Assembly: GCA_013334745.1 (NCBI GenBank)
Contig: JAAXWY010000003.1
Span: forward strand, 19,492-83,491
Direction: 5' to 3'
Source: Coriobacteriia bacterium
GTDB lineage: Bacteria > Actinomycetota > Coriobacteriia > Anaerosomatales > JAAXUF01
Length of the DNA: 64,000 nucleotides
Below, in pieces: positions 1 through 59,132 of the stretch. Under the pieces are notes generated by a model. The model did no database searches. It was not told the DNA's origin and saw only the letters and a list, made by a program, of their open reading frames with translations. How positions within the stretch are numbered: the first letter of the stretch is position 1; each line of letters starts with the position of its first letter. Both the position numbers and the translations under genes were made by a program.

Positions 1-993
1 GCCGACCACGTCAACGTCCAGCCACACGCCGGCGCACAGGCGAACATGGCCGTCTACTACGCGGTCTGCAACCCCGGTGACACGGTCATGGGCATGAACC
101 TCGCCATGGGCGGGCACCTCACCCATGGCTCGACCGTCAACTTCTCGGGTAAGTGGTTCAACGTGGTCCCGTACGGCCTCGACATGGAGACCGAGACGAT
201 CGACTACGACGAGATGGAGCGCCTCGCGCACGAGCACAAGCCGCGCATGATCATCGCCGGTGCCAGTGCGTACCCGCGCGTCATCGACTTCGCCCGCTTC
301 TCGGCGGTCGCCAAGGCGGTCGGCGCCGTCTTCGTCGTCGACATGGCGCACATCGCAGGACTGGTCGCGACCGGTGCGCACCCGTCACCGGTGCCGCACG
401 CCGACTTCGTGACCTCGACATCGCACAAGACGCTGCGCGGTCCGCGTTCCGGCTTCGTTCTGTGTACCGAGGAGTGGGCGTCTGCGCTGGACAAGGCGGT
501 CTTCCCGGGCCTGCAGGGCGGCCCGCTCGAGCACGCGATCGCGGGCAAGGCGGTTGCGTTCGGCGAGGCCATGCGACCGGAGTTCACCACCTACATCGAC
601 AACGTCGTCGCCAACGCCCGCGTGATGGGGGAGGCGATGGTCGCCCGTGGCCTGCGCTTGGTCTCCGGCGGAACCGACAACCATCTGGTGCTCGTGGACC
701 TGCGGCCGGCCGGCATCACCGGCAAGGACGCTCAGATACTGCTCGAAGAGGTCGGGATCACCACCAACAAGAACGCCATCCCCAACGACCCCGAGAGCCC
801 GTTCGTCACGAGCGGCATCCGCGTCGGTTCGCCCGCGATGACGACGCGCGGATTCACCCAGGACGAGGCTGCCGAGGTCGGTCGCCTCGTGGCCGAGACG
901 GTCTTCAGCCGTGACGACGCTGCGGCGCTGGACCGGATCCGGGCCGAGGTTTCCGAACTGCTCGCCAAGCATCCGCTCTATCCCGAACTCTAG
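1..993 (+). CDS. glyA: Serine hydroxymethyltransferase, 5' end cut by the window edge
   Basis: Frame 1 is open from nt 1 ([21 protein letters not shown]...), so the ATG at 46 in the ORF track is internal. The PLP-lysine motif [12 protein letters not shown] and [12 protein letters not shown] are SHMT hallmarks. Stop TAG 991-993. Confidence 0.95.
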
Positions 994-16144: not shown

Positions 16145-17851
16145 GTGAGCCGGCGCGATTCTCGCCTCGTCTTCTTGATCGTGCTTGGTTTCGCGCTCGC
16201 GCTCTCATCGGCTCCCGCCGCGCTGGGCGCTTGGCCGGGCGGCGTGCAGCAGGTGGCAGTCCCAACCGAGCGAATCGTGGGTGCGGACGTGTTCGACTCG
16301 GCTGTGCTCGTCGGGGCGCGGCAGTATCCCGGTTGGGCCGGCGTCGAGCACGTCGTCGTCGCATCCGGCGAACCCGCCGCGCTCGCCGACGCTGCGATTG
16401 CGCAGAGCCTGTGTTGGGCCTACGACGCGCCGCTACTGCTCGTGAAGTCCACGAGTGTGCCGGCGGCCACGCGCGTGGCGCTGCAGCAGATCGCCTCGGT
16501 CAACCCCGGCCTCACCGTTCACGTCGTCGGTTCCTCCTCGACGATTCGCGCCGCCAGCCTCGCGCAGGTTCAGTCCGCGGCAAGCACGGCGACTGTCGAG
16601 CAGCCATGGAAGACAGTCACGAGATCCTCGCTCGCCGCGGCCGTAGCCGGTCGCACGCGCGAAGTGGCGGCTGCGACTTCTCGTAGCATCCCTGCGGTCG
16701 CGCTGGTCGCGAACACGGGGGACAATCCCGAGCTGGTGTGGGATGCGATAGTCGCCTCTGCGATCTCACGGCACACCGGCATACCGCTTCTCGTGACCGG
16801 TTCGCGCACAGTCCCGCTTGCGACCTCAAGCGCTCTCTCGGCCGCCGGCTTCCCGAGAGTGGTGGTCATCGGCGGGACCCGATCGATCAGCTCGGGGGCG
16901 TACGGCCAGCTTCACGCGAGCGAGCGATGGGGTGGGGCCAACCTGAGTTCGACGGCGGCCATCGTGGGCTCCAAGTCCACGTCCCTCGGTTACAGCAGCA
17001 TCGCGACGGTCGGCGTGGCCGCGGTTCAGGGTCATGCGGCCGTGGGGGCCGGACTCGTCGGTTCGCAGGGTGGCGTGATGCTGTTCAGTGGTAAGGCGCG
17101 TGTCGCGCGGCCAACGTGGTCGCTGCTTGCTGCGAACTCGGGGGCGCTTTCGCAGGCTTACGTATTCGGTGGTGGTTCGATCGACGAAGCCCAGGTCCGT
17201 GAGCTGCGGGGAGACGCCGCGCGCCCGTGGCTTGCGAGCGATGCGCCGGGCCGCTACGTCGCCAAGCGCTTCAGGGTCACCGGCTGGGTGGGCGGAAATA
17301 CCACGAGCATCTCGATCAAGGTCGACGGCAAGCGGGTCGCGGGCGCGACACTCGCACCGTGGCAGCGGTTCAACTTCACTGCGATCCCGATGTCGGGTTC
17401 ATCGGCCAGAGTCGAGGTCGTCGCCGAGAATCCCGACGGGCGAGACACGGCATCGGGACGCACGGTCAAGCGTCTCCGATACCCAGCGGCTACGTGCATC
17501 GTGATCGATAAGTCGGACTTCAAGTTGTACTGGGTCAAGGACAACCGGCTCGTGAAGGCGTATCCGATCGCCATCGGGCGGGCTGGCATGGAGACCCCTG
17601 CCCCGGCCACCTGGAAGATCCTCGCGAAGTACCACACGAGCCCGGGAAGCGTGTACGGGCCGCGCAAGATGCGGCTGTTTCGTCAGCGCGGCGGGCACTA
17701 CTCGTTCACCGCTTACGGAATCCACGGAACGAACCAAGAGTGGGTGATCGGAACCAAGGCGAGCCACGGCTGCATTCGCATGTACAACCGCGACGTGCTC
17801 AAGCTGTTCCCGCAGGTGCCGATGGGCACGCTCGTCTTCACGAGGCAGTAG
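16145..17851 (+). CDS. Secreted protein: three CWB2-type cell-wall-binding repeats fused to a YkuD L,D-transpeptidase domain
   Basis: GTG after AAGGAG and a signal peptide ...SSAPAALGA. Three ~100-aa repeats follow the CWB2 pattern (R..G.D....A......PLLL....VP......L......V.V.GG...I). The C-terminus has YGIHGTN...SHGCIRM, the L,D-transpeptidase catalytic motif. Confidence 0.85.
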   Translation: MSRRDSRLVFLIVLGFALALSSAPAALGAWPGGVQQVAVPTERIVGADVFDSAVLVGARQYPGWAGVEHVVVASGEPAALADAAIAQSLCWAYDAPLLLVKSTSVPAATRVALQQIASVNPGLTVHVVGSSSTIRAASLAQVQSAASTATVEQPWKTVTRSSLAAAVAGRTREVAAATSRSIPAVALVANTGDNPELVWDAIVASAISRHTGIPLLVTGSRTVPLATSSALSAAGFPRVVVIGGTRSISSGAYGQLHASERWGGANLSSTAAIVGSKSTSLGYSSIATVGVAAVQGHAAVGAGLVGSQGGVMLFSGKARVARPTWSLLAANSGALSQAYVFGGGSIDEAQVRELRGDAARPWLASDAPGRYVAKRFRVTGWVGGNTTSISIKVDGKRVAGATLAPWQRFNFTAIPMSGSSARVEVVAENPDGRDTASGRTVKRLRYPAATCIVIDKSDFKLYWVKDNRLVKAYPIAIGRAGMETPAPATWKILAKYHTSPGSVYGPRKMRLFRQRGGHYSFTAYGIHGTNQEWVIGTKASHGCIRMYNRDVLKLFPQVPMGTLVFTRQ

Positions 17852-27533: not shown

Positions 27534-28088
27534 ATGCAAGTCAAAGTGGTTGGGCGGCACATGACCGTCACGGATCCCACCCGCGCGTATGCAGAGGAGA
27601 AGTTCGGCAGGCTTGCCAAGATCTACGACGCCGAGCCGGTCGTCGCGGAGGTAGTGCTCGACGTGCGCAAGAACCGTTCGCACCCCGATCGGTTCACCGC
27701 CGAGGTCACGGTTCGGCTGAAGGGTCACGTGGTTCGAGCCGAGGAGACCTCGACTGACATGCATGCGGCAATCGACCTTGCAGCTGCCAAGGCCGAGAAG
27801 CAGATGCGTAAGTACAAGACGAAGGTCATCGATCGACGCAACCACGGCGTGGCCGTGACGAAGACGGCTGCCGGTGACACTGAGATTGCTGATGACACTG
27901 AAGCCTCGGCTGAGGTCGTGCGCATCAAGACCATCGAGACCAAGCCCATGACCGAGGAAGAAGCGGTGCTTCAGCTCGAACTTCTGGGCCACGACTTCTT
28001 TGTGTTCCGTCACGCCGATACGGAGCGAGTCAATGTTCTGTATCGCCGAAACGACGGCGACTACGGGCTGATTCAGCCGAACGCGTAG
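27534..28088 (+). CDS. hpf: Ribosome hibernation-promoting factor, long form
   Basis: 184 aa. The N-terminus MQVKVVGRHMTVTDPTRAYAEEKFGRL is typical of the RaiA/HPF fold. The C-terminal dimerisation domain is present (EEAVLQLELLGHDFFVFRH). Confidence 0.93.
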   Translation: MQVKVVGRHMTVTDPTRAYAEEKFGRLAKIYDAEPVVAEVVLDVRKNRSHPDRFTAEVTVRLKGHVVRAEETSTDMHAAIDLAAAKAEKQMRKYKTKVIDRRNHGVAVTKTAAGDTEIADDTEASAEVVRIKTIETKPMTEEEAVLQLELLGHDFFVFRHADTERVNVLYRRNDGDYGLIQPNA

Positions 28089-28120
28089 AACTCGGCCAAG
28101 TCGTTCGCAACCGCGCAGTG

Positions 28121-28155
28121 AGAAGGGCGCCTCCGGGCGCTCTTCTTGTCGTTGT
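28121..28155 (+). terminator. Hairpin plus T-rich tract after hpf
   Basis: Nt 28121-28131 pair with 28136-28146 (11 bp including one G-U, loop TCCG), followed by TGTCGTTGTT. Confidence 0.55.
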
Positions 28156-28184
28156 TGACATGCGTTCGCGGCTGTCCGTACAGT
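28155..28184 (+). promoter_or_regulatory. Sigma-70-like promoter TTGACA-N18-TACAGT
   Basis: -35 TTGACA at 28155-28160 and -10 TACAGT at 28179-28184, about 80 nt upstream of the 28264 gene. Confidence 0.45.
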
Positions 28185-28263
28185 AAGCCGTGATTCGCGC
28201 ACGCGCGAACGCACTTGGTTGACTCAGTCGTAGCAGTAATCGTCGTAGCAGGGAGCTCCCCAA

Positions 28264-28935
28264 GTGGATCAGAGCGCATCCCGCATCAAGGTCGAGGATA
28301 TCGAAGCCGCGCTCGCGGAGGTCGGAGAGATTAAGGCTGCCCGCATCGTGCCGGACGCCGACGGATCCATCGCCGAGATACACATCCTCGCACTTCCCAC
28401 CAAGGCCCCAAAGCAGCTCGTGCGCGACATTGAGTCGACGCTGATGGCTCGTTTCGGTATACCCGTTGACCACAAGAAGATCTCGATCGCGCTTCTCGGA
28501 CGCGACGCGCTCAAGGACGAGGCGCCTGTTGATGCACGTTCGACCGTTGCTCGGCCGCGTATCTGTTCGATCAATGCCACAGTGAGTGGTGTGCAGGCAT
28601 CCGCTTCGGTGGTACTGGAGATCGGTGATGCTGAGTACGTAGGCAACGCCAGCGGCCCTGCCAGCAAGACGGGGCGCGCGCGGCTCGTCGCACTGGCGGC
28701 GCTTGACGCTGTCAGCCAGTACACTGACGCCACCATTTCCTTCGCTCTCGAGGACGTAGCCATCGTGCAGCTTGGCCGCGAGAAGGTCGCGGTTTCCTGC
28801 ATCGCCCTCGTTAGCGGATTTGGAGAGCAACACCTGTCCGGCTCCGCGCTCGTACGGCAGAACGACAACGATTCCATCGTGCGTGCCACGCTCGATGCGA
28901 TCAACCGCCGTATGGGCTTCCTGACAACCGTATAA
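28264..28935 (+). CDS. Hypothetical two-domain cytoplasmic protein
   Basis: 223 aa. GTG after GGGAG. GC3-rich codons and a balanced charged composition contrast with the Ser/Arg/Ala-rich mirror ORF on the minus strand. I recognise no catalytic motif. Confidence 0.7.
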   Translation: MDQSASRIKVEDIEAALAEVGEIKAARIVPDADGSIAEIHILALPTKAPKQLVRDIESTLMARFGIPVDHKKISIALLGRDALKDEAPVDARSTVARPRICSINATVSGVQASASVVLEIGDAEYVGNASGPASKTGRARLVALAALDAVSQYTDATISFALEDVAIVQLGREKVAVSCIALVSGFGEQHLSGSALVRQNDNDSIVRATLDAINRRMGFLTTV

Positions 28936-29072
28936 CCCACAAGTTTGGACCGGCGCCGTGAACCAACGCACGAACACTGTCAGCACTGAAATGAGCGGAG
29001 CGGACAGAGTTCTTCCATCGCTAGCGGGATGGGAGAAGACCACACCAGTTCCACGAAGGGGGTCTTCTCACC

Positions 29073-29147
29073 ATGAAGCGTATGATGCTGGTTCTCGCGT
29101 CTCTCGCCGCCGTTGTTCTTTCCGGTGGCGCTTACTGGAAGATGTAG
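29073..29147 (+). CDS. Candidate 24-aa hydrophobic micro-protein (MKRMMLVLASLAAVVLSGGAYWKM)
   Basis: ATG lies 10 nt after AAGGGGG. The peptide has a single TM-like segment. It sits 48 nt upstream of the HD-GYP gene and is too short for the ORF track. The call is speculative. Confidence 0.3.
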   Translation: MKRMMLVLASLAAVVLSGGAYWKM

Positions 29148-29195
29148 TATCCGGGCGGAGTCGGTCCACTTTGAGTTGGGGGCGGGTGGGGCATA

Positions 29196-30530
29196 GTGAC
29201 TGAATCACAGCGCCCCAACCGCCCCTTCCTCACTTATGTCGGCTTAGTAGTATTGAGCGCCGTCCTGATAGTGATCACAGCATGGCGCCTATTCCCGCCG
29301 ATGGCTTCGTTCCAGCTGATTCTGCTCCTGGTTGCGGTCATTCTTTCCGAGAACTTCCGGTTCTCTATTGAGCCCTATAGTGTCTCATTGGCGTTTCCGT
29401 TGGGTGTTGCCAGCGCGATTCTGTGTGGCCCGGCAGCATCTTGTGTGGTGGCCGCGGTCTCCTCGATCAACATTGATGAGCTTAGGCAGCGCAAGCCTGC
29501 GCCAATCGTGCTCTTTAATCTGGGCCAGATGGTTCTGAGCACCGGGCTCTCTGCTTGCCTATACATGTGGCTTGGCGGGCGGGTGTTGCAGGTCGGGGTT
29601 TCCTCATTCCGGCCGCTCGGGGTTGGTGACTTTCCGCAGATCCTAGTCCCCGCGCTGGCGATGTCTGTCACCTGTGTTCTTGGCAACATGTTGCTGACCG
29701 CTGTGGGTATGGCACTGTTTACCCGCCAGCCACTCTCCTCGACCGCATCCACGATGATCACCTTTGTCCCGACCCAATTCACCCTGGCGGGGCTAGGATT
29801 CCTGGTGGCGCAAGTGCTTGCCATTTCTGCGCTTGCCCTACCGCTGGTTCTCGCACCGCTTGCGGTTGCGCGACAATTGTTCCTTCGTTACGCCGGGCTC
29901 AAGGTGGCCTATGTCGACACAATACGTTCGCTGGTAGGTGCGCTTGAGGCCAAGGACCCGTACACCCGAGGCCATTCTGAGCGCGTGTCAACATATGCCG
30001 TCGCGCTCGGCCGCTCTTGTGGCATGGACTCAAGGGACCTGGAGCGTCTCGAGTATGCTGCCTTGCTTCACGATATCGGCAAGCTGGCTGTGCCAAGCAT
30101 GGTCCTTACCAAGCCCGGGAGACTCGAGCCTGAGGAGATGCTACAGATACGGGAGCATCCTGCGCGCGGGGCAGACATGATTCGCAGGATTCCTCCGCTT
30201 CGGGACTTGGCGCAAGCGGTCTTTCAGCATCATGAGTGGTTCGATGGAACCGGTTATCCGCTGCGGCAGGGCAGCGACGAATTGTCGCTTTCGGCAAGAG
30301 TCCTGAGCATTGCTGACAGTTACGACGCCATGACTACCACCAGAGCATATCGCCCTGCCTTGAGCAGGGAAGACGCTATCGCCGAGTTGATTCGTGGCGC
30401 TGGAAGCCAGTTCGATGCGGAGATCGTTCGACTCTTCGTAGAGTGCAGGTTCGACGCGGAGGACGGCGCGCAAAGTGTGCTCGTTGAGCAAGCGATATCC
30501 ACGCGGACAGAACCCGTTCGGAGTTCCTAG
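29196..30530 (+). CDS. Polytopic membrane HD-GYP domain phosphodiesterase
   Basis: About 230 aa with 7-8 hydrophobic helices, followed by a complete HD-GYP set: GHSERV, LLHDIGK, HPARG, HHEWFDGTGYP and ADSYDAMTTTRAYR. Confidence 0.9.
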   Translation: MTESQRPNRPFLTYVGLVVLSAVLIVITAWRLFPPMASFQLILLLVAVILSENFRFSIEPYSVSLAFPLGVASAILCGPAASCVVAAVSSINIDELRQRKPAPIVLFNLGQMVLSTGLSACLYMWLGGRVLQVGVSSFRPLGVGDFPQILVPALAMSVTCVLGNMLLTAVGMALFTRQPLSSTASTMITFVPTQFTLAGLGFLVAQVLAISALALPLVLAPLAVARQLFLRYAGLKVAYVDTIRSLVGALEAKDPYTRGHSERVSTYAVALGRSCGMDSRDLERLEYAALLHDIGKLAVPSMVLTKPGRLEPEEMLQIREHPARGADMIRRIPPLRDLAQAVFQHHEWFDGTGYPLRQGSDELSLSARVLSIADSYDAMTTTRAYRPALSREDAIAELIRGAGSQFDAEIVRLFVECRFDAEDGAQSVLVEQAISTRTEPVRSS

Positions 30531-30532
30531 AC

Positions 30533-31666
30533 ATGCCTACTTCCATCATCCCGTTCTTTGGCCAAGCACCCCCATATGCGCTCGAACCAACCTTATGGGC
30601 GTCCATTTGGTTCTTGGCGGGACTAGTTGTTCTAGACCTGTTCGATATCTCGCTCCCAAGGGGCGACAGCGTAGGTGTTGCGGGTGCGCTTGCGGCTGCG
30701 TCCTTGGTTGTTCTGGGACCCGCCCAGGGCGCGGTGTTGGTCGGAATCTCAGCTGTAGGAGTCCACCTACTTCGGCGGGGGCTAAGCCAGCCTCTGCGGC
30801 TCGTTGGCGTACTAATCTCCAGAATCGCTGGAATAGTGGCGGCTGCATCTGTTCTCGCAGTTGGCGCGAGTGTTCTACCCCCCTTGGCACTCTATGGAAT
30901 TGTGCCGGCGGCTTTCCTGATGGTTGAAATCATCACGGCCCAAGCGGTGACCGGGGTCGTTTCTTCCAGATCATTCTTGAGGCTTGTTCGTGGCAACATC
31001 CGCTCTCAGGCTCCATTGTTGGCGGCACAGTGGTCAGCATCGGTGCTTCTGTTGCTGACCTATAACGGCATGGGTGGCTGGAGTCTCATTCCCGTTGTCG
31101 CGCTGCTCCTCTTGATGCGGCAGTCGTATGCGCTCTTCTTGGATATTCGAGAGACGTATCGGACTACTGTGGAGGTTCTAGTGGAGGCCGCCGAGAACCA
31201 AGACGCCCGGCGTGTCGGGCACGCGGACCGAACCGCCATGATGGCGCGCGCAATCGCGGGTAGGCTCGGGCTGGGCGCCGCCATGGTGGAGCGCATTTCT
31301 TACGCGGCCCTGTTGCATGATCTGGGCACCCTCTCGGATCGTCCGCAGGACGGCCCTGACCCTGTCTCGCGATCGATGAGCTCGGCAGATGTGGTGCACG
31401 GTGTGGAGTTCTTTCGAGATGTCGAGCCTATCCTGCGTGCCTGCGATGGGCCTGAGGGGGCGGCGAACGCGGTCGAGTCGGACTTGACGGCGGCGATGAT
31501 CGTCGCTCTTGCTAGCGATATTGACATGGCGTTTCACCCGGAGGTTGCGGCTGCTCACAAGACGACAGTGCTCGACGACTTGGCTCCGATGGTCTCGCCA
31601 ACCGTGAAGGCGCGAGTGGTTGGTGCGGCTCTTGAGCTGGGCTACCGGACGCCTGCGGTCAGATAG
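30533..31666 (+). CDS. Polytopic membrane protein with a degenerate HD-GYP-like domain (predicted inactive paralogue)
   Basis: Same layout as the upstream gene. It keeps GHADRT and LLHDLG. The HHE..DG.GYP motif is replaced by LRACDGPEGAAN and D.YDA by ASDIDMAF. It starts 2 nt after the upstream stop. Confidence 0.8.
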   Translation: MPTSIIPFFGQAPPYALEPTLWASIWFLAGLVVLDLFDISLPRGDSVGVAGALAAASLVVLGPAQGAVLVGISAVGVHLLRRGLSQPLRLVGVLISRIAGIVAAASVLAVGASVLPPLALYGIVPAAFLMVEIITAQAVTGVVSSRSFLRLVRGNIRSQAPLLAAQWSASVLLLLTYNGMGGWSLIPVVALLLLMRQSYALFLDIRETYRTTVEVLVEAAENQDARRVGHADRTAMMARAIAGRLGLGAAMVERISYAALLHDLGTLSDRPQDGPDPVSRSMSSADVVHGVEFFRDVEPILRACDGPEGAANAVESDLTAAMIVALASDIDMAFHPEVAAAHKTTVLDDLAPMVSPTVKARVVGAALELGYRTPAVR

Positions 31667-32223
31667 TGCTCGCGCTTCTCTCGATCGGCGTCGGTTTGGC
31701 TGTGGCCTGGGCGAGTGGCGGTTCACTGCGACGCTTGGCGGAGCTGAGCATCCCGTGGTCACCCTGGATCTTGGTCGCCTTCCTCGTTCAGGGAGTCGCT
31801 AGAGGGCGGCTGTTCGGCTTCGCTACGTCGGAGTTCGGGTTTGCCCTCTGGTGCATATCAAGCACCTTCTTGGTCGTACTGCTGATCACTTCATGGCGAC
31901 TACCCGGGCTCTGGATTGCTGCTGTGGGGCTGGGGCTGAATCTTGTAGTGGTGCTCGCTAACGGTGGCATGCCGGTATCTGTCCCTGAAACGGCAGTGTT
32001 GTCTCAGGCGGAACAGGTTGCCCAATCCATGGGGCTATACCAGTTTGTCGGAGTGGGCACTATATGGGGGTTTCTGGGCGATGCGATCACCTTCCGTGTG
32101 ATGTCTGGCACGTTTCTGCTCAGCGCGGGGGATGTTCTCTTGATTGTTGGCGTGGCTGTTCAGATCGTGTCGGCCACTGCAGGCGCCGTGACCAGTCCGG
32201 AGCACCTGTCTGACACGAGCTGA
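31666..32223 (+). CDS. Small integral membrane protein (from memory resembles DUF5317)
   Basis: 185 aa with 5-6 helices. Motifs VLANGGMPV and SAGDVLLIVG. Its GTG overlaps the upstream TAG by 1 nt (TAGTG). Confidence 0.75.
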   Translation: MLALLSIGVGLAVAWASGGSLRRLAELSIPWSPWILVAFLVQGVARGRLFGFATSEFGFALWCISSTFLVVLLITSWRLPGLWIAAVGLGLNLVVVLANGGMPVSVPETAVLSQAEQVAQSMGLYQFVGVGTIWGFLGDAITFRVMSGTFLLSAGDVLLIVGVAVQIVSATAGAVTSPEHLSDTS

Positions 32224-36040: not shown

Positions 36041-38815
<2,775 letters not shown>

Positions 38816-38822
38816 AGAGCAG

Positions 38823-39965
38823 ATGGTCGAGAACCGCATTCAGGAGATCACTGCGCTGCGCGAACGCGTGACGCAGATGTCGGAGTACCTGCACATCGAT
38901 TCGCGCAAAGCCGAACTCGCGAAACTCGAGGCCAAGGCCGCTGAGCCGGGCTTCTGGGACGACCAGTCAATCGCGCAGTCGGTCATGGCGCAGTCCTCCG
39001 GCATCCGTGAGGAGATCGGCGCGTATGACGACATCGTCTCGGCGCTCGACGACGCTGACGTGGCCAACGAATTCGCCGTCTCGGGCGACGACGAAGAGCT
39101 GGCGGTCGAAGTCGAGAACGCGCTGAAGCAGGCGAACTCGCTCATCAACGCGCTCGAGGTGAACTCGTGGTTCACTGGCGAGTTCGATCACGGCGACGCG
39201 ATCGTCACCATCACACCGGGTCAAGGCGGACTGGAGGCTCAGGACTGGGCTGACATGCTCCTCAAGATGCTCATGAAGTACTGCGAGTCCAAGAAGTGGA
39301 AGACCGACCTCAACGACTACACTCCTGGGGTCGAGATCGGCATTGACCGAGCGGTGTTCACCGTGCACGGTCGCAACGCCTACGGCATGCTCCAGTCCGA
39401 GATGGGCGTTCACCGATTGGTCCGTATAAGCCCCACCGACGAGAAGAAGCGCCGACAGACCACCTTCGCTGGCGTCGAGATACTCCCGTTGTTGCCCGAT
39501 GAGGTCGAGGTCGAGATCCGCGACGAGGATCTGCGCATCGACGTGTACCGATCAAGCGGGCCCGGTGGCCAGAGCGTCAACACGACCGACTCGGCGGTTC
39601 GGATCACGCACATGCCTTCGGGACTGGTGGTCACATGCCAGAACGAGAAGTCGCAGCACAAGAACAAGGATGCGGCGATGAAGATCCTTCGCGCGCGCCT
39701 CTACGAGATCGAGAAGGCGAAGCGAAACGCTGAGATCGACGAACTGCGCGGCCCCAAGCGAGAGATCACGTTCGGCAGCCAGATCCGCAGCTATGTCCTG
39801 TACCCGTATCAGATGGTCAAAGACCTGCGAAGCGGCGAGGAGACGGGCAACGTGAACGCGGTTCTCGGCGGCGAGATCGATCAGTTCGTGATCGGATTCC
39901 ACCGGTGGCGTGTGAAGGGCGAGGGCGCCGCGGTCGCCGCAGCGGCCCTCGAAGAAGAGGAGTAG
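38823..39965 (+). CDS. prfB: Peptide chain release factor 2, single uninterrupted frame
   Basis: ATG at 38823 gives MVENRIQEITALRERV.... RF2-type GVHRLVRISPTDEKKRRQTTF and GGQ loop SSGPGGQSVNTTDSAVRITH. There is no in-frame TGA or frameshift site near codon 25. The ORF-track start at 38592 overlaps secA. Confidence 0.93.
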   Translation: MVENRIQEITALRERVTQMSEYLHIDSRKAELAKLEAKAAEPGFWDDQSIAQSVMAQSSGIREEIGAYDDIVSALDDADVANEFAVSGDDEELAVEVENALKQANSLINALEVNSWFTGEFDHGDAIVTITPGQGGLEAQDWADMLLKMLMKYCESKKWKTDLNDYTPGVEIGIDRAVFTVHGRNAYGMLQSEMGVHRLVRISPTDEKKRRQTTFAGVEILPLLPDEVEVEIRDEDLRIDVYRSSGPGGQSVNTTDSAVRITHMPSGLVVTCQNEKSQHKNKDAAMKILRARLYEIEKAKRNAEIDELRGPKREITFGSQIRSYVLYPYQMVKDLRSGEETGNVNAVLGGEIDQFVIGFHRWRVKGEGAAVAAAALEEEE

Positions 39966-44640: not shown

Positions 44641-47600
44641 ATGACAACCCCGGGTTCAGAGCCGTGCCGCACTGATGTCGGTGTGGGTGACTCGCGCAAC
44701 GGCGCGTTGGCGCAGCACGCCCTGATTCGGAGAGTCTTGGCCATCGTCGCCATCTTCGCTCTGGTACTGCCGCTCCAGGCTTCAGGATTCATCTCGACGG
44801 GACCGACGGGCGACCGAGCGTGGTTCTGGCACAACCCCCAGCCGCAAGGCAACGACCTGCGTGCCAGCGCATGGCTCGATGCTTCGACCGGCTGGGCGGT
44901 AGGGGTCGTAGGCACTGCTCTCAAGACGACCGACGGGGGTGCGACGTGGGTCGCACAGGACCCGGGCACCGTGCGCGATCTGACGGGCGTGTCGTTCGTT
45001 GATGCCAACAACGGCTGGGCGTGCGGGGTTTCCGCAACCGTGGTCAGGACGACCAACGGCGGCACCACCTGGACGCCGCAGACGGCGCCGACCACACCGG
45101 CTGCACGTAACCTCAGGGCCATTTCGTTCTTCAACAGCAGCGTCGGTGTTGCGGTTGGGGACCTTGGAACGACGACGTCGACCATCGTCTATACCGGAGA
45201 TGGCGGCACGACCTGGCGAACCGCGACCACCACCGCGACGGTAGGGCTGACCGGCGTTCAGATGGTCTCAGCGACCACCGGTTGGGCGGTCGGCGGCGCC
45301 GGCGCCATCCTGAAGACCACCGATGGTGGCGCGACGTGGACTCCGGTCTCGTCTCCCACCGTCGCCGGACTCTCCGCGGTGTCGTTCGAGCCATCGGGGC
45401 AGGTCGGATACGTGGTCGGCAACGCCGCGCTGCCCAGCTGGACCATCTACAAGACCACTGATGCTGGTGTCACGTGGACGGCGGTAGACGGTCTGGGTGC
45501 CACCGGCGCGATCAACCTGACTGCGGTCGACTGTCTCGATGCGAACAACGCGATCACAGTCGGTACCAACGGTCAGGTGCGGCACACGACCGACGGCGGC
45601 GCGACTTGGCTCAACCAGTCGTTGAACAACCTCGGTGGGCAGGCACTTCGCGACGTCGAGCTTGTCGATGCCGATGTCATCAAGGCGACCGGTGACTTCG
45701 GTCAGCTGTTCTTCACACGTAACGGGGGAGACTCGTGGTTCACGCCCGCGATCGGTGCCGGAGCAACTTACCTTGCCGGCCACTTCGCTGACGTCAACAA
45801 CGGCTGGATCGTGGGCGCTAGCGGCACCATCATGCGTACCGCAGACGCTGGGCAGACCTGGGAGATCCAGTCGAGCGGGATCACGAACTGGCGGGCTATC
45901 CATGCGCGCAGCGCAACCGCAGCGTGGGTGGTTGGCGACGATGGCCTGGTGAAGCGCACCACGGACGGCATCAACTGGACCAGCCAGCCATCGGGAACCA
46001 CGCAGGTGCTCAATGGCGTGTGGTTCACCTCTACCAGTACCGGGTTCGCTGTCGGCGCCAACGGGACGATTCTGCGAACGACCGACGGGGGCGTCACCTG
46101 GAATGCGATGACATCCGGTACCACCGCCGCGCTGAATTCCGTGTGGTTCGCCAGCCCTTCCGTCGGGTGGGCGGTCGGCAACAACGGCGTCATCCGTCGA
46201 ACGACCAACGGTGGTTCGACATGGTCGGCGCAGGCTTCTACGACGACGCAGAACCTTCTGACGGTGCGGGGTGTCAGCGCTAGCAACGTCTGGGCGGCGG
46301 GTAATGCCGGCACGATGGTGCGCACCACGGACGGAAGCGCATGGTCGAGTGCGGGCATCACGACCGGTGCGGCATCCAATGCGATTCGCAACGTGTTCTT
46401 CGCGACTGCGACCGACGGCTGGTATGTCGGCAACTACGGGCTTGTCCGGCGTACCACTGACGGCGGACTGACGTGGACTTCGCTGGATGTCGGTGTTCCC
46501 ACGAGCGCGCTGGATCCGCAGGTCCGAATGAACGCGTGCTGGTTCACCTCAGCAGCGCCCTACACGGGTTATGTAATCGGCGACTACGGTGTCATCCGCC
46601 GTACCGTCGACAGCGGTTCCACGTGGACTTCGCTCCATTTCGGCACCCTGAGCAACCTCAACGCCATCGACTTCGCCGATGCCCAGACGGGATGGATCGG
46701 CGGGGCCAGCGGAACCATGATGGTCACCGAAGACGGCGGCCACGTGTGGAGGGGACAGAAGACGGGCAATAACGCAGCCTTCGCCGCCGTCTCGGTCGTC
46801 AGCTCCCAGACGGTCTGGGCCACCGGTGACAACGGCGCCATTCGTAAGACGCTTGACGGTGGCCGCACGTGGACCGGCCAAACCTCGGGTACCACGGTCA
46901 ACCTGAAGGGGATCTCGGCGGTAGACTCATCGCATGCGGTCGTGGTGGGGCAGGTCGGCTTGGTGAAGTACACCACTGACGGCGGAAGCACGTGGACCAC
47001 CGGCTCGGTCGATACGACGCAGCAGCTGAGTAGCGTGAGCATGGTGGATACCTCCACCGGCTGGGCTGTCGGGCCGCGGCTCGCGGGCAACAACGTTGTG
47101 TTCCACACCACAGACGGGGGAGCCACGTGGTCACCGCAGGCGACCACCGCCAACGCGAACCTGTGGGCGGTGCACTTCCGTTCGGCCTCGCTTGGATTCG
47201 CCGCGGGTGACTCGGGTGTGATTCTCAGGACCACCGACGGGGGCGCCACGTGGGTACGTCGACCGACCCCCACGACGCTGCCCTTCTACGGCATCAGGTT
47301 CGCGGACGACAACAACGGCACGGCTGTTGGCGGTGGCGGCGTGCTGGCCCGTACCGCGGACGGCGGGACGACGTGGGCGCTGCAATCATCAGGCGGCGGC
47401 AAGTCGTTGACCTCGGTGTACCCGCTCGACGCCAGCAGGTCCTTCATCGTGGGCAGTGGCGGCACGATCATGCGACTGGGCGACACTGCACCGCCGTTCA
47501 CCTCCCGTTCCGTGACGCCGGCCGACCCTGACGGCGCAGGCGGTTGGTACCGCACCGACCCGCAGGTCACGCTTTCGTCCAGTGCCCCCGGGAACACGTA

Positions 47601-50427
47601 CTACGGATGGAACTCAGCGGCTGGGCCGTTCACGCTCTACACGGGGCCGACCTCGGTTCCCGAGGGCCTGCAAACCATGTACTACTACTCCGTCGATGCG
47701 TCGGGCAACGCCGAGTCGGCGAACGAGGCGACGTTCTCTGTCGACTTCACACCACCTGATGCAGCGACTCTCTTGACTGCGACGGCTGTCACGACCACCA
47801 CCGCGGACATCCAGTGGGCCGAGTCCGCTGACGCGCTATCGGGCGTTCATCATTACCTCGTCACCGTCAGCAACGGCGCGACTCTCAGCGTCGTGGCCAC
47901 CTCGGCCACGATTGCAGGTCTCAGCCCTGGCACGCTCTACTCGGCAGTGGTCAACGCGGTCGACGTGGCGGGGAACGTCTCGGCGACAAGCACCCCCGCA
48001 GCCTTCAGCACCGCCGGCGTTGACTCATCGCCGATGAGCACGGTTCTCGGCGTGACCCCGGCCGCGTCTGACGGTCTCGCCGGTTGGTACGTGACGACGC
48101 CGACTGTGACCATGGCAGCGCTGCCGATGGATGCGGTCGCTGAGATCTTCTATACATGGGGCAGCATCGACGGCACCTACGATACGTACGCCACGACGAT
48201 CACGCCGCCCGCGGGATCGTCGACGCTGCGCTACTCGAGTCATGACACAGCAGATCCGGGTCATGCCGCCGAGATGACACAGGCAGCCGTGTTCAACCTC
48301 GACACACAGACCCCCACAGCTCCGTCGGTCACGGCGAGTGTCACGAGCTACGCGAGTGTCGACCTGTCGTGGCCGGACGTGACGCCCACGCCAAGCGGCA
48401 TCGATCGCTACGACGTGTATCGCGACGGCGCCTTCTTCGCGTCGACCGACACCACGACCTTCGGGGTCGCAGGTCTGACTGCGGAGACCGGCTACACATT
48501 CGCGGTCGTCGCCGTGAATGTGGCGGGCTCGTCTTCCTCGACGGCGTCCGTGAGCGCTACGACGCCCATGGCGCCGCTTCCCGCAGCGCCGGCGTACGTT
48601 GCGGCCCGGTCGCCGTCCGGCTACTTCGCCTTCGTGAACTGGGACTACAGTCGAGACACGCTCGGGACGGCGAACTACCGAATCTGGCGTTCGACCGATG
48701 GCTCGAGCTACTCTGCGATCGCAACGACGACCGGCGGACTCTACGGTGCGACCTATCTCGACACGACGCTCAGCGCTTCGACCAAGTACTGGTACGCCAT
48801 CTCCACGGTGGACTCGCGCGGAGAGAGCGCCTTGTCCAGCACTGCAACAGCGGTATGGCCGAGCATCTCGACCACCACCACCGGTCCTGAGCGTGTCCAA
48901 GGGCTCTCCGCGGTGGATACCTCGGGGTCGATTTACCTGAGCTGGGCGCCATCCGATAATCCCGCGACGATCGGCTACAACGTCCTTCGTGCCGACTCGA
49001 GCCTGGCCACTGCCAGCGTGCTCAACACCCTCCCGATCAGCGGCACGGGCTTCTTCGACCTTTCGGTTGAGAACGGCGCACCCTACTACTACTCCGTCGT
49101 TGCGATCGACTCGAACAACAACACCGGCACCGTCTCGCTTGAGCTGGCGGCCAAGGCGCACGGTACCTACCGGGGTCTGTCTCCGCACGATCTCGATGCC
49201 GACAACTCAGGCTGCGGTTGCCACTCGGCGCATACCGCTACGGCCGACGACAAACTCATCCGGTACCCGTATGCCACCAAGGACACTGCGTGCGACGCGT
49301 GTCATCCACCGGCGGCGGCGCGTGGTGAATTCCTCGATCCGCTCGCGAAGTCCCGTCATGCCCTGGCGGCGACCTCCGCGGTCAATGCGCAGTTCACCTG
49401 CAACACGTGTCATCGGCCGCTCAAGGGTTCCACCGAGGCGACGGCGTCACTCATGCGTACCAACAGCGAGTCGCCCTGTGTGGTCGTGACCGACACGCCG
49501 GCCGGCAATGCGTTCTGCTACTCCTGCCACGGCGGTGGCTCGACATTGCCGATGGGCGACCTGAGCGGTTTCGAGAACTCAGCGCACAACAATGTGCCGG
49601 CGCCCACGACCGCCGGGATCGTCTGCGATACCTGTCACGAGTCGCACTCATCGCGCAATGAAGGTCTCAACCGTTACAGCGGCTACATGATGTGCGTTGA
49701 GTGTCACAACTCGACGCAGTCAGACCCGCTGTCCCCCGACATCTTGAGTCAGCTGACGCTCAACTCAGATGCGAACGCCAAGCACCCACTGCTGCCAAAG
49801 GATCAGCTCAATGGCGCTCAGATGCGGTGCCAGAACTGCCACAACACGCATTCGAGCACGACACAGTACCCGCTGGTTGACCCGCACGACCCGAGCCCCA
49901 CGGGTACGTGGACCACGACGCGCGGCGACGAGAAGTCCTTCTGCTTCCAGTGTCACGACGGGCAGCCGCTGCCGACAAGCGCCGAAGCGTCGCCGTGGGC
50001 ACCCGCTGTGCTCGGATCGAACGGCGCCACGACTGTGCCTGATATCGAGAACTCGTATCAGACGAACGTGCATGGGTTCGGCTCACGCAGTGATGGAACG
50101 ACGACGACTGCTTACCTGCGTCAGGACATGGGCTACCAGTATGGCGACGTGCTCGAGTGCCGCGCATGTCACGACCCGCATGGCACGGTGAACAACTACG
50201 CGCTGCAGCAGAACATCAAGTCGGCAAGCGGGCTGAAGACGGTCAACGGTGTCATGGTCGTCAAGGCGCCCACCGGCTACGACGTCCGCTTCTTCTGCAA
50301 CTCGTGTCACCTGTTCGATTCTCAGACTCACGACGCGATTGCCGGGACGAGCACGGTCACCTTCCCGATGAACTGCACGACCTGCCACCGTCACATCAAG
50401 GCCGGTGTCCCGTCACCGAACCTTTAG
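44641..50427 (+). CDS. Giant secreted fusion protein: about 21 BNR/Ycf48-like propeller blades, FN3/Ig-like modules, and a C-terminal multihaem cytochrome c domain
   Basis: 1,928 aa with a signal-like RRVLAIVAIFALVLPLQASG. I count 20 clear copies and 1 degenerate copy of [KRHY]T.[DN]GG.[TS]W at ~42-aa spacing. FN3-like modules follow. The last ~410 aa carry 10 CXXCH and one CXCH. Confidence 0.9.
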   Translation: MTTPGSEPCRTDVGVGDSRNGALAQHALIRRVLAIVAIFALVLPLQASGFISTGPTGDRAWFWHNPQPQGNDLRASAWLDASTGWAVGVVGTALKTTDGGATWVAQDPGTVRDLTGVSFVDANNGWACGVSATVVRTTNGGTTWTPQTAPTTPAARNLRAISFFNSSVGVAVGDLGTTTSTIVYTGDGGTTWRTATTTATVGLTGVQMVSATTGWAVGGAGAILKTTDGGATWTPVSSPTVAGLSAVSFEPSGQVGYVVGNAALPSWTIYKTTDAGVTWTAVDGLGATGAINLTAVDCLDANNAITVGTNGQVRHTTDGGATWLNQSLNNLGGQALRDVELVDADVIKATGDFGQLFFTRNGGDSWFTPAIGAGATYLAGHFADVNNGWIVGASGTIMRTADAGQTWEIQSSGITNWRAIHARSATAAWVVGDDGLVKRTTDGINWTSQPSGTTQVLNGVWFTSTSTGFAVGANGTILRTTDGGVTWNAMTSGTTAALNSVWFASPSVGWAVGNNGVIRRTTNGGSTWSAQASTTTQNLLTVRGVSASNVWAAGNAGTMVRTTDGSAWSSAGITTGAASNAIRNVFFATATDGWYVGNYGLVRRTTDGGLTWTSLDVGVPTSALDPQVRMNACWFTSAAPYTGYVIGDYGVIRRTVDSGSTWTSLHFGTLSNLNAIDFADAQTGWIGGASGTMMVTEDGGHVWRGQKTGNNAAFAAVSVVSSQTVWATGDNGAIRKTLDGGRTWTGQTSGTTVNLKGISAVDSSHAVVVGQVGLVKYTTDGGSTWTTGSVDTTQQLSSVSMVDTSTGWAVGPRLAGNNVVFHTTDGGATWSPQATTANANLWAVHFRSASLGFAAGDSGVILRTTDGGATWVRRPTPTTLPFYGIRFADDNNGTAVGGGGVLARTADGGTTWALQSSGGGKSLTSVYPLDASRSFIVGSGGTIMRLGDTAPPFTSRSVTPADPDGAGGWYRTDPQVTLSSSAPGNTYYGWNSAAGPFTLYTGPTSVPEGLQTMYYYSVDASGNAESANEATFSVDFTPPDAATLLTATAVTTTTADIQWAESADALSGVHHYLVTVSNGATLSVVATSATIAGLSPGTLYSAVVNAVDVAGNVSATSTPAAFSTAGVDSSPMSTVLGVTPAASDGLAGWYVTTPTVTMAALPMDAVAEIFYTWGSIDGTYDTYATTITPPAGSSTLRYSSHDTADPGHAAEMTQAAVFNLDTQTPTAPSVTASVTSYASVDLSWPDVTPTPSGIDRYDVYRDGAFFASTDTTTFGVAGLTAETGYTFAVVAVNVAGSSSSTASVSATTPMAPLPAAPAYVAARSPSGYFAFVNWDYSRDTLGTANYRIWRSTDGSSYSAIATTTGGLYGATYLDTTLSASTKYWYAISTVDSRGESALSSTATAVWPSISTTTTGPERVQGLSAVDTSGSIYLSWAPSDNPATIGYNVLRADSSLATASVLNTLPISGTGFFDLSVENGAPYYYSVVAIDSNNNTGTVSLELAAKAHGTYRGLSPHDLDADNSGCGCHSAHTATADDKLIRYPYATKDTACDACHPPAAARGEFLDPLAKSRHALAATSAVNAQFTCNTCHRPLKGSTEATASLMRTNSESPCVVVTDTPAGNAFCYSCHGGGSTLPMGDLSGFENSAHNNVPAPTTAGIVCDTCHESHSSRNEGLNRYSGYMMCVECHNSTQSDPLSPDILSQLTLNSDANAKHPLLPKDQLNGAQMRCQNCHNTHSSTTQYPLVDPHDPSPTGTWTTTRGDEKSFCFQCHDGQPLPTSAEASPWAPAVLGSNGATTVPDIENSYQTNVHGFGSRSDGTTTTAYLRQDMGYQYGDVLECRACHDPHGTVNNYALQQNIKSASGLKTVNGVMVVKAPTGYDVRFFCNSCHLFDSQTHDAIAGTSTVTFPMNCTTCHRHIKAGVPSPNL

Positions 50428-58781: not shown

Positions 58782-59132
58782 GGGGGCGACTGGATTCGAC
58801 ACGATAGTTCTGAGGGAGGAAGCAGGCCGCGGTCTCCTCGCCGCGTTAAACAGGGGAAAACGCCAATTAACTGGCACCAATAACTACGCTCTCGCTGCCT
58901 AAATAGCCAGCGACGCCGACCCGGTGCACGTCCCCGACACCGGTAAGGCGCAACAGAGGGGAATGCCGCCAAGGACGTTGTCAGTATGCCGAGGCGAAAG
59001 ACAGAACTGACTGGGAAAGGGCGCGCCTGTCACGGTGTGCTGCCCCGACCGAGACTCAATCCGTGACTGAGCCTGGAGATGCCTCCTAGGGTGCTACCGT
59101 GGACCGGAGTTCGATTCTCCGCGCCTCCACCA
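58782..59132 (+). ncRNA. ssrA: Transfer-messenger RNA (tmRNA)
   Basis: 5' GGGGGCGACTGGATTCGAC... and 3' ...GGAGTTCGATTCTCCGCGCCTCCACCA. The acceptor stem GGGGGCG/CGCCTCC has the G3:U pair. Tag frame 58855-58902 ends ...NNYALAA-TAA. It lies directly downstream of smpB. Confidence 0.95.

Follow-up and report, generated by a model that had tools for sequence, protein, structure and literature searches.

A natural Ser-Pro-Thr variant of release factor 2 in Coriobacteriia and its possible relation to TAG-rich stop-codon usage

A Ser-Pro-Phe (SPF) tripeptide counts as a conserved hallmark of bacterial release factor 2 (RF2), the only factor that reads UGA, which release factor 1 (RF1) cannot read. 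Since 2000 it has been disputed what the tripeptide contributes to codon discrimination; genetics favours a 'tripeptide anticodon', and structures and simulations point to a more distributed recognition. In the tripeptide-anticodon work of Ito, Uno and Nakamura, Escherichia coli RF2 was reportedly engineered to F207T, in which the tripeptide is Ser-Pro-Thr (SPT), and to S205P, in which it is Pro-Pro-Phe (PPF). Here we describe the RF2 gene prfB on a stretch of 64,000 nucleotides from a Coriobacteriia bacterium (contig JAAXWY010000003.1), referred to as the window in the following, which encodes SPT naturally. The factor itself is well known, but this natural form of it is new. Full-text searches of the literature for SPT or SPF together with RF2, and for Coriobacteriia or Eggerthella together with release factors or stop usage, revealed no description of an SPT RF2.

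The engineered F207T protein contains the same Phe-to-Thr change, at the third tripeptide position, as the RF2 of Coriobacteriia. The laboratory variants of E. coli are single substitutions, whereas SPT in Coriobacteriia is natural and ancient and comes with five or more other fixed substitutions. The laboratory variants are reported to be toxic or not to complement, or to lack termination activity (PMC6881298); the SPT of Coriobacteriia, in contrast, is evidently compatible with life beside RF1. A second system for comparison is the Salmonella RF2 that evolved to replace RF1 by the mutations E167K, E170K, E172K and K177R. They alter the same surface segment of domain 2 that is changed in Coriobacteriia RF2, and both proteins have lost the acidic residue at 172 and carry a changed 177/178 pair. 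The replacements differ, however, with E172K and K177R in Salmonella and E172V and K177D plus S178R in Coriobacteriia, where position 167 stays acidic (Asp). The Salmonella variants arose only after deletion of RF1 and they misread UGG (PMC7530605), whereas Coriobacteriia keep RF1. With RF1, which has the tripeptide Pro-x-Thr (PxT), the SPT RF2 shares the Thr at the third position, and the codons of RF1, UAG and UAA, are those preferred across the genome. Unlike RF1, it has Ser-Pro instead of Pro-x, and the lineage has a genuine RF1 besides it. By analogy, the SPT RF2 would functionally resemble the relaxed classes represented by the engineered F207T and by E172K.

SPT in the RF2 of Coriobacteriia

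The window prfB (38823..39965, plus strand) starts with ATG, ends with a TAG stop at 39963-39965 and encodes 380 residues in an uninterrupted frame. The product is identical to NTU70581.1, annotated as 'MAG: peptide chain release factor 2 [Coriobacteriia bacterium]' (MAG, metagenome-assembled genome), on a 108-kb contig. It scores 467.5 bits against the NCBIfam RF2 model TIGR00020 (prfB; cutoff 370) and 244 bits, far below the cutoff of 423, against the RF1 model TIGR00019 (prfA). A phmmer comparison yielded E values of about 1e-100 to the B. subtilis and about 1e-88 to the E. coli RF2 structures. Like the canonical RF2 of E. coli (1GQE), B. subtilis (6SZS/9FY1) and T. thermophilus (4V5E), it belongs to the TIGR00020 family with PCRF and RF-1 domains and has the GGQ motif, the GGxE helix tip, the Ser-Pro of the tripeptide and the Thr that reads the third base (E. 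coli T215). The protein is RF2 by family and lacks only the SPF, which is a conserved hallmark and not part of the family definition. We regard the gene as the regular, essential prfB of its Coriobacteriia genome.

Residues were numbered by alignment to E. coli RF2 (1gqe_A); throughout the decoding domain the E. coli number exceeds that of the window protein by 2, and E. coli numbers are used unless stated otherwise. The tripeptide is encoded by agc ccc acc at 39429..39437 (plus strand), as the earlier note had read it, and comprises window residues Ser203-Pro204-Thr205, equivalent to E. coli S205-P206-F207, in the context GVHRLVRISPTDEKKRRQTTF. Its first residue is Ser, in contrast to the Pro of the RF1 Pro-x-Thr, and its third residue is Thr in place of the conserved Phe. 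The tip of helix alpha5, which we take from published RF2-ribosome structures to be the region that reads the first base, is GGLE (39225..39236, plus strand), with window Leu137 in place of the usual Thr (T139). Between window V170 (E172) and D175-R176 (K177-S178), encoded at 39330..39350 (plus strand), the charge pattern is altered. The sequence Q-T-T-F (39456..39467, plus strand; E. coli H214-T215-S216-F217) retains the conserved third-base-reading Thr as window T213, followed by Thr214, which replaces Ser. The GGQ motif for peptidyl-tRNA hydrolysis (ggt ggc cag, 39564..39572, plus strand) is intact and is invariant in the alignment.

SPT is not private to the organism of the window. In a collection of 5.8 billion proteins, the 120 best homologues (72-100% identity) all contained LVRISPTD. 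With a 58%-identical SPT protein (P0122) as query, 119 further sequences were listed, 118 of them with SPT and one in which the motif pattern was not matched; this set includes the RF2 of the cultured Eggerthella lenta, of E. sinensis, of Eggerthella sp. YY7918 (complete genome) and of Raoultibacter massiliensis. Scanning of metagenome contigs from sediments, groundwater and the human gut revealed SPT in 80 of 80 loci (57-79% identity). In these loci all four Thr codons are used (ACC 60, ACG 17, ACT 2, ACA 1), and since the codons vary synonymously while the amino acid remains constant, the residue is under purifying selection. With more than 300 related sequences, ranging from environmental Coriobacteriia to Eggerthella, SPT is neither an error nor a one-off; its invariance together with the synonymous variation rules out sequencing or assembly error as its source.

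The frequency of SPT among RF2 proteins in general was determined by a HMMER search of 1.84 billion cluster representatives, of which the best 150 were scanned for the tripeptide. SPF was found in 120, SPT in 13, SPY in 5 and SKY and SEF in one each; nine representatives, among them one RF1-like protein, had no RF2-type tripeptide, and a slightly different motif scan recovered a fourteenth SPT representative (P0142). Outside the Coriobacteriia lineage, none of these best 150 representatives had SPT; of the 126 with S-P-x, 120 had Phe and 5 had Tyr as the third residue. All SPT representatives that cover the helix-alpha5 region share the clade signature PG.GGLEAQD, which indicates a single origin. 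Judged from these alignments, every Coriobacteriia-type RF2 examined has SPT as a shared derived character, which none of the other sampled RF2 lineages has, so that the broad comparison proposed in the earlier note shows a motif that is rare elsewhere and strictly follows the lineage. The SPT RF2 is an ancient variant under purifying selection and, with GGQ present, is catalytically intact.

Other departures from SPF were also encountered among the representatives (P0135, P0208, P0225, P0229, P0237, P0246 and P0264). SPY occurs in five RF2 clusters, SEF in P0264 and SKY in P0135, which is encoded on a 1.95-Mb contig and whose helix tip is otherwise canonical (GGTDAQDW).

The change at 207 is one of several that distinguish the clade from canonical RF2. 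In an alignment of 125 SPT-type and 104 SPF-type full-length RF2 sequences with E. coli RF2, position 207 is Thr in all 125 and Phe in all 104. T139 is replaced by Leu in 123 of the 125 SPT-type proteins (SPF-type: Thr 78, Val 14, Leu 3), E172 by Val in 118 (Glu, Gln or Asp in 95 of 104 SPF-type), A174 by Leu or Ile (SPF-type: Ala), K177 by Asp in 122 (SPF-type: Lys 70, Leu 18, Arg 7), S178 by Arg in 123 (Ser in 85 of 104) and S216 by Thr in 124 (Ser in 99 of 104), and positions 209-211, variable in the SPF type, are Glu-Lys-Lys. T215 of RF2 reads the third base of the stop codon, and S216 adjoins it (PMC5776981). In the evolved Salmonella strains devoid of RF1, E172K and K177R raise release at UAG 30- to 40-fold (PMC7530605). 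Positions 207 and 172, both of which have been tied experimentally to the reading of UAG, are thus both changed in the SPT type, which suggests that the pocket was altered as a whole and not hit by one neutral change. From the pattern of substitutions (SPT with T139L, E172V, K177D/S178R and S216T), the codon-reading pocket of Coriobacteriia RF2 looks remodelled.

RF1 and stop-codon usage in the lineage

The earlier note implied that RF1 might have been lost. A tblastn search of the window revealed a single release factor homologue, prfB. The window begins inside glyA, whose 3' part (1..993, plus strand; SHMT profile positions 92-404) is cut by the window edge. In the closest genomes, identified via GlyA (76-81% identity), the gene order is rho-rpmE-thyX-DUF1385-prfA-prmC-tsaC-rpiB-glyA, where prfA precedes glyA by about 2-3 kb. 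The corresponding prfA should accordingly lie some 2-3 kb beyond the left edge of the window, and from this synteny RF1 is predicted to be present in the genome to which the window belongs. Intact RF1 with PVT or PQT and GGQ is encoded upstream of glyA in three relatives (L001, L002 and L004). On one contig of 549,203 bp (ERZ25039527:contig_4525), RF1 (P0407, PVT, at about 461-462 kb) and an SPT RF2 (P0098, at about 419-420 kb, 73% identical to the window RF2) are encoded in the same orientation 41 kb apart, and the genes between them are those of the window: glyA, upp, a wecA-like gene and the atp operon, then secA-prfB-PHP-YitT. The best 120 RF1 homologues found with the RF1 of L001, many of them labelled Coriobacteriia, all have PAT, PVT, PQT or PTT. 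The SPT RF2 thus coexists in the lineage with a normal RF1 of the PxT type, and the loss implied by the earlier note does not hold.

The TAG-rich stop usage remarked on in the same note was borne out. Two gene calls of the window based on the GC content of third codon positions gave TAG 29, TAA 10 and TGA 7 among 46 genes and TAG 34, TAA 9 and TGA 8 among 51 genes, a TAG share of about 65%; four further open reading frames (ORFs) with Pfam support end in TAG. In the 80 metagenome loci that encode an SPT RF2 (55-69% GC), 305 stops are TAG (47%), 227 TAA (35%) and 123 TGA (19%). With the same gene caller, 40 non-Coriobacteriia loci of at least 58% GC had 99 TAG (17%), 158 TAA (26%) and 341 TGA (57%). 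The enrichment of TAG and the depletion of TGA in the SPT loci relative to the other high-GC loci have Fisher p values of about 1e-30 and 1e-45, respectively. Deposited gene calls gave TAG 19, TAA 5 and TGA 17 for two loci of the lineage (L081/L082) and TAG 13, TAA 12 and TGA 13 for Eggerthella (L085/L086); the actinobacterial neighbours with an SPF-type RF2 had TAG 0, TAA 0 and TGA 17 (L083) and TAG 7, TAA 2 and TGA 12 (L087). Within the lineage, the use of TGA ranges from 14 to 42% by sub-lineage, with 42% in the loci of at least 67% identity. In bacteria TGA is expected to rise with GC while TAG stays low, which is known as the 'TAG paradox' (PMC9348620). Coriobacteriia are a clear exception to this trend.

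Both codons are true stops. GlyA, Upp, FabZ and AtpB end on TAG, and MurA and a nucleotide-sugar dehydrogenase end on TGA, in each case at the end of the family profile; the prfB of Eggerthella itself ends in TGA. A scan of the window with ARAGORN detected one transfer-messenger RNA (tmRNA) and no tRNA gene. A reassignment of TGA or TAG was ruled out on these grounds.

Nine SPT loci (L118, L123, L125, L127, L128, L129, L138, L143 and L151) had no TGA stop among 8-15 crude gene calls each. They are mostly human-gut metagenome contigs of about 59-62% GC, in which TAG and TAA share the stops, and the avoidance of TGA is far stronger in them than in environmental members, some of which have about 40% TGA.

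Possible reading of UAG by the SPT RF2

Genuine genes end in TGA, a codon that RF1 cannot read; on the indirect evidence of these gene ends, the RF2 of Coriobacteriia must therefore terminate at UGA, and also at UAA. The best explanation of the data, which we hold tentatively and with somewhat less than even confidence, is that the remodelled SPT RF2 has a relaxed discrimination of the third base, shares UAG with RF1 and thereby favours TAG. The Phe-to-Thr change at 207 and the loss of the negative charge at 172 would weaken discrimination of the third stop base. RF2 would then also release at UAG, which would be shared with RF1, and UAG, a GC-rich codon covered by both factors, would be favoured. 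Recognition of G at the second base might have been tuned down to avoid termination at the Trp codon UGG, and TGA would be disfavoured. That the SPT RF2 releases at UAG by means of Thr207 and the neutralised position 172 is possible, although we incline slightly to doubt. It may likewise be, and we advance this with similar reserve, that Coriobacteriia including Eggerthella lenta naturally use an RF2 with relaxed third-base reading, such that UAG is read by RF1 and RF2 and the partner substitutions solve the toxicity of UGG misreading by which engineered omnipotent RF2 proteins are limited. The proposal of relaxed third-base reading in the earlier note is legitimate, and the reading of UAG itself is plausible from the residues involved.

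Several points weigh against the sharing of UAG. In ribosome structures the Phe of SPF is located away from direct contact with the third base. Since RF1 was retained wherever it was looked for, RF2 is under no compulsion to read UAG. The TAG share varies while SPT is constant, from about 27-35% in L001 and Eggerthella to 60-75% in the window, L002 and L003, and the SPF-type neighbour L087 also has 33% TAG (7 of 21). Engineered omnipotent RF2 proteins misread UGG, and in the orthologues GlyA, SecA and RF2 no depletion of Trp was found. Over all predicted proteins, in a comparison that took in the window and the loci L001-L004, L019 and L081-L086, Trp amounts to 0.78% in Coriobacteriia loci, 1.12% in other high-GC loci and 1.42% in the SPF-type L083; the lower overall content is probably compositional. 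Experimental precedent is mixed. F207T is listed in one source as widening RF2 to all three stops, and the mirror prediction of the tripeptide model, that S205P reads UAA only, was confirmed in vivo (PMC11903333). The study mentioned above states, in disagreement, that SPT abolishes termination by RF2 and spares BrfA-dependent rescue (PMC6881298).

Some of these points favour a compensated neutral drift, in which SPT and its partners rebuilt the pocket, specificity remained confined to UAA and UGA, and the TAG-rich, TGA-poor usage had another cause, e.g., high expression of RF1 relative to RF2, or a mutational or k-mer bias peculiar to the lineage. The retention of RF1 with normal PAT, PVT or PQT motifs, the variable TAG share at constant SPT and the 33% TAG of the SPF-type L087 agree with drift, as do the 14-42% of stops that are still TGA and the emphasis of structure-based work on distributed recognition rather than a tripeptide code (PMC5776981). 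We consider drift somewhat unlikely. Against it, the near-exclusive use of Phe (120 of 126) or Tyr (5 of 126) as the third residue outside the lineage speaks for a strong constraint, the two positions with an experimental effect on UAG reading (207 and 172) are both changed, and the shift in stop usage is large and opposite to the general GC trend.

Alternatively, SPT might have weakened RF2, especially at UGA, without any gain at UAG, and selection would then have purged TGA. RF1 would handle most termination at TAG and TAA, and RF2 would persist to serve the remaining TGA stops and RF2-dependent ribosome rescue. The abolished termination and intact BrfA-dependent rescue described in PMC6881298 would fit, and so would the threefold depletion of TGA across the class and its near-absence from many gut-metagenome loci of about 61% GC (no TGA in L118, L123 and L127). 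A crippled reader of UGA is hard to sustain, however, in members in which TGA ends at least a third of the genes (17 of 41 in L081/L082; 13 of 38, including prfB, in Eggerthella) or, as in the loci of at least 67% identity, 42% of them, and strict purifying selection acts on both the motif and the substitutions that go with it. Such a partial loss of function is rather unlikely.

That RF1 was lost and the SPT RF2 is the sole, omnipotent class-I release factor of the lineage has practically no likelihood: the missing second release factor gene in the 64 kb is outweighed by the start of the window about 2-3 kb downstream of the expected prfA place, the intact prfA upstream of glyA in L001, L002 and L004, the presence of RF1 and SPT RF2 on contig_4525 of ERZ25039527 and the recovery of at least 120 RF1 homologues, many labelled Coriobacteriia, and prfA in the relatives refutes this reading for the lineage.

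If RF2 and RF1 do share UAG, Coriobacteriia would prefer TAG over TGA as their GC-rich stop and would form a natural exception to the TAG paradox. The question of stop usage matters because TAG is otherwise reported to be low and insensitive to GC in bacteria. SPT with its defined partner substitutions constitutes a natural experiment that extends to cultured, genetically accessible gut species. It could show whether the third tripeptide residue sets third-base specificity, by which routes misreading of UGG is avoided and whether release factor specificity drives stop-codon usage. The SPT RF2 is also relevant to amber suppression and recoding in Coriobacteriia and to the stop-codon assumptions made in gene calling.

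The prfB locus and other features of the window

prfB lies directly downstream of secA (36041..38815, plus strand; TAG stop), for which a start at MANFLQ... is likely, and its ATG at 38823 is located 8 nucleotides past the secA stop. A 457-residue ORF starting with GTG at 38592 was rejected as the extent of prfB, being a mere upstream extension that overlaps secA. The pairing of secA with prfB is kept across the actinobacterial loci examined (L081, L083, L085, L086 and L087).

Canonical prfB genes often contain a programmed +1 frameshift, a trait that is common but not family-defining. The single continuous frame with EYLHIDSRK pointed out in the earlier note was found at 38883..38909 (plus strand); the segment is homologous to the E. 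coli frameshift site and contains no in-frame stop. In the alignment to 1gqe_A, CTG CAC (window L23-H24, 38889-38894) is positioned at E. coli L25/D26, the place of CUU UGA C, and no programmed +1 frameshift of this kind is present in the window prfB. The note had considered its lack worthy of attention, but it is ordinary for the phylum: in a survey from 2025, 0 of 2,658 Actinomycetota genomes had the prfB frameshift motif, and Mycobacterium smegmatis frameshifts poorly on the prfB motif (PMC12421855).

The nearest SPF-type RF2 cluster found (P0125/P0271; NCBI MBA3738343.1, 'Actinobacteria bacterium') does contain a canonical programmed frameshift site, AAGGAG TTC CTT TGA C. It is located at L087:9760-10879 (jgi 3300037515, Ga0395803_0000082), where ORF1 reads MSDHTERLRKLRDRILAAKEFL up to its stop, and it accounts for the truncated 292-residue gene calls in the cluster. 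The site is at odds with the total absence of the motif reported for Actinomycetota (PMC12421855).

Elsewhere in the window, the tmRNA gene (58782-59132, plus strand) encodes the tag peptide GTNNYALAA, and its tag frame ends in TAA. The region 28000-32000 has the lowest GC (0.599) and a strong negative AT skew (-0.17) and contains two adjacent genes for HD-domain proteins (29196-30530 and 30533-31666), both terminated by TAG. A protein of 568 residues (16145-17851, plus strand; TAG stop) combines N-terminal CWB2 cell-wall-binding repeats with a C-terminal YkuD L,D-transpeptidase domain. The gene at 44641-50427 (plus strand; TAG stop) encodes 1928 residues, in which BNR/Ycf48-like beta-propeller repeats and fibronectin type III domains are joined to a multihaem cytochrome region at the C terminus. 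This region contains 10 CxxCH motifs and matches the paired-CXXCH, MtrC/MtrF-like and cytochrome c7 families; by its domain composition, the protein could serve extracellular electron transfer in a Gram-positive lineage.

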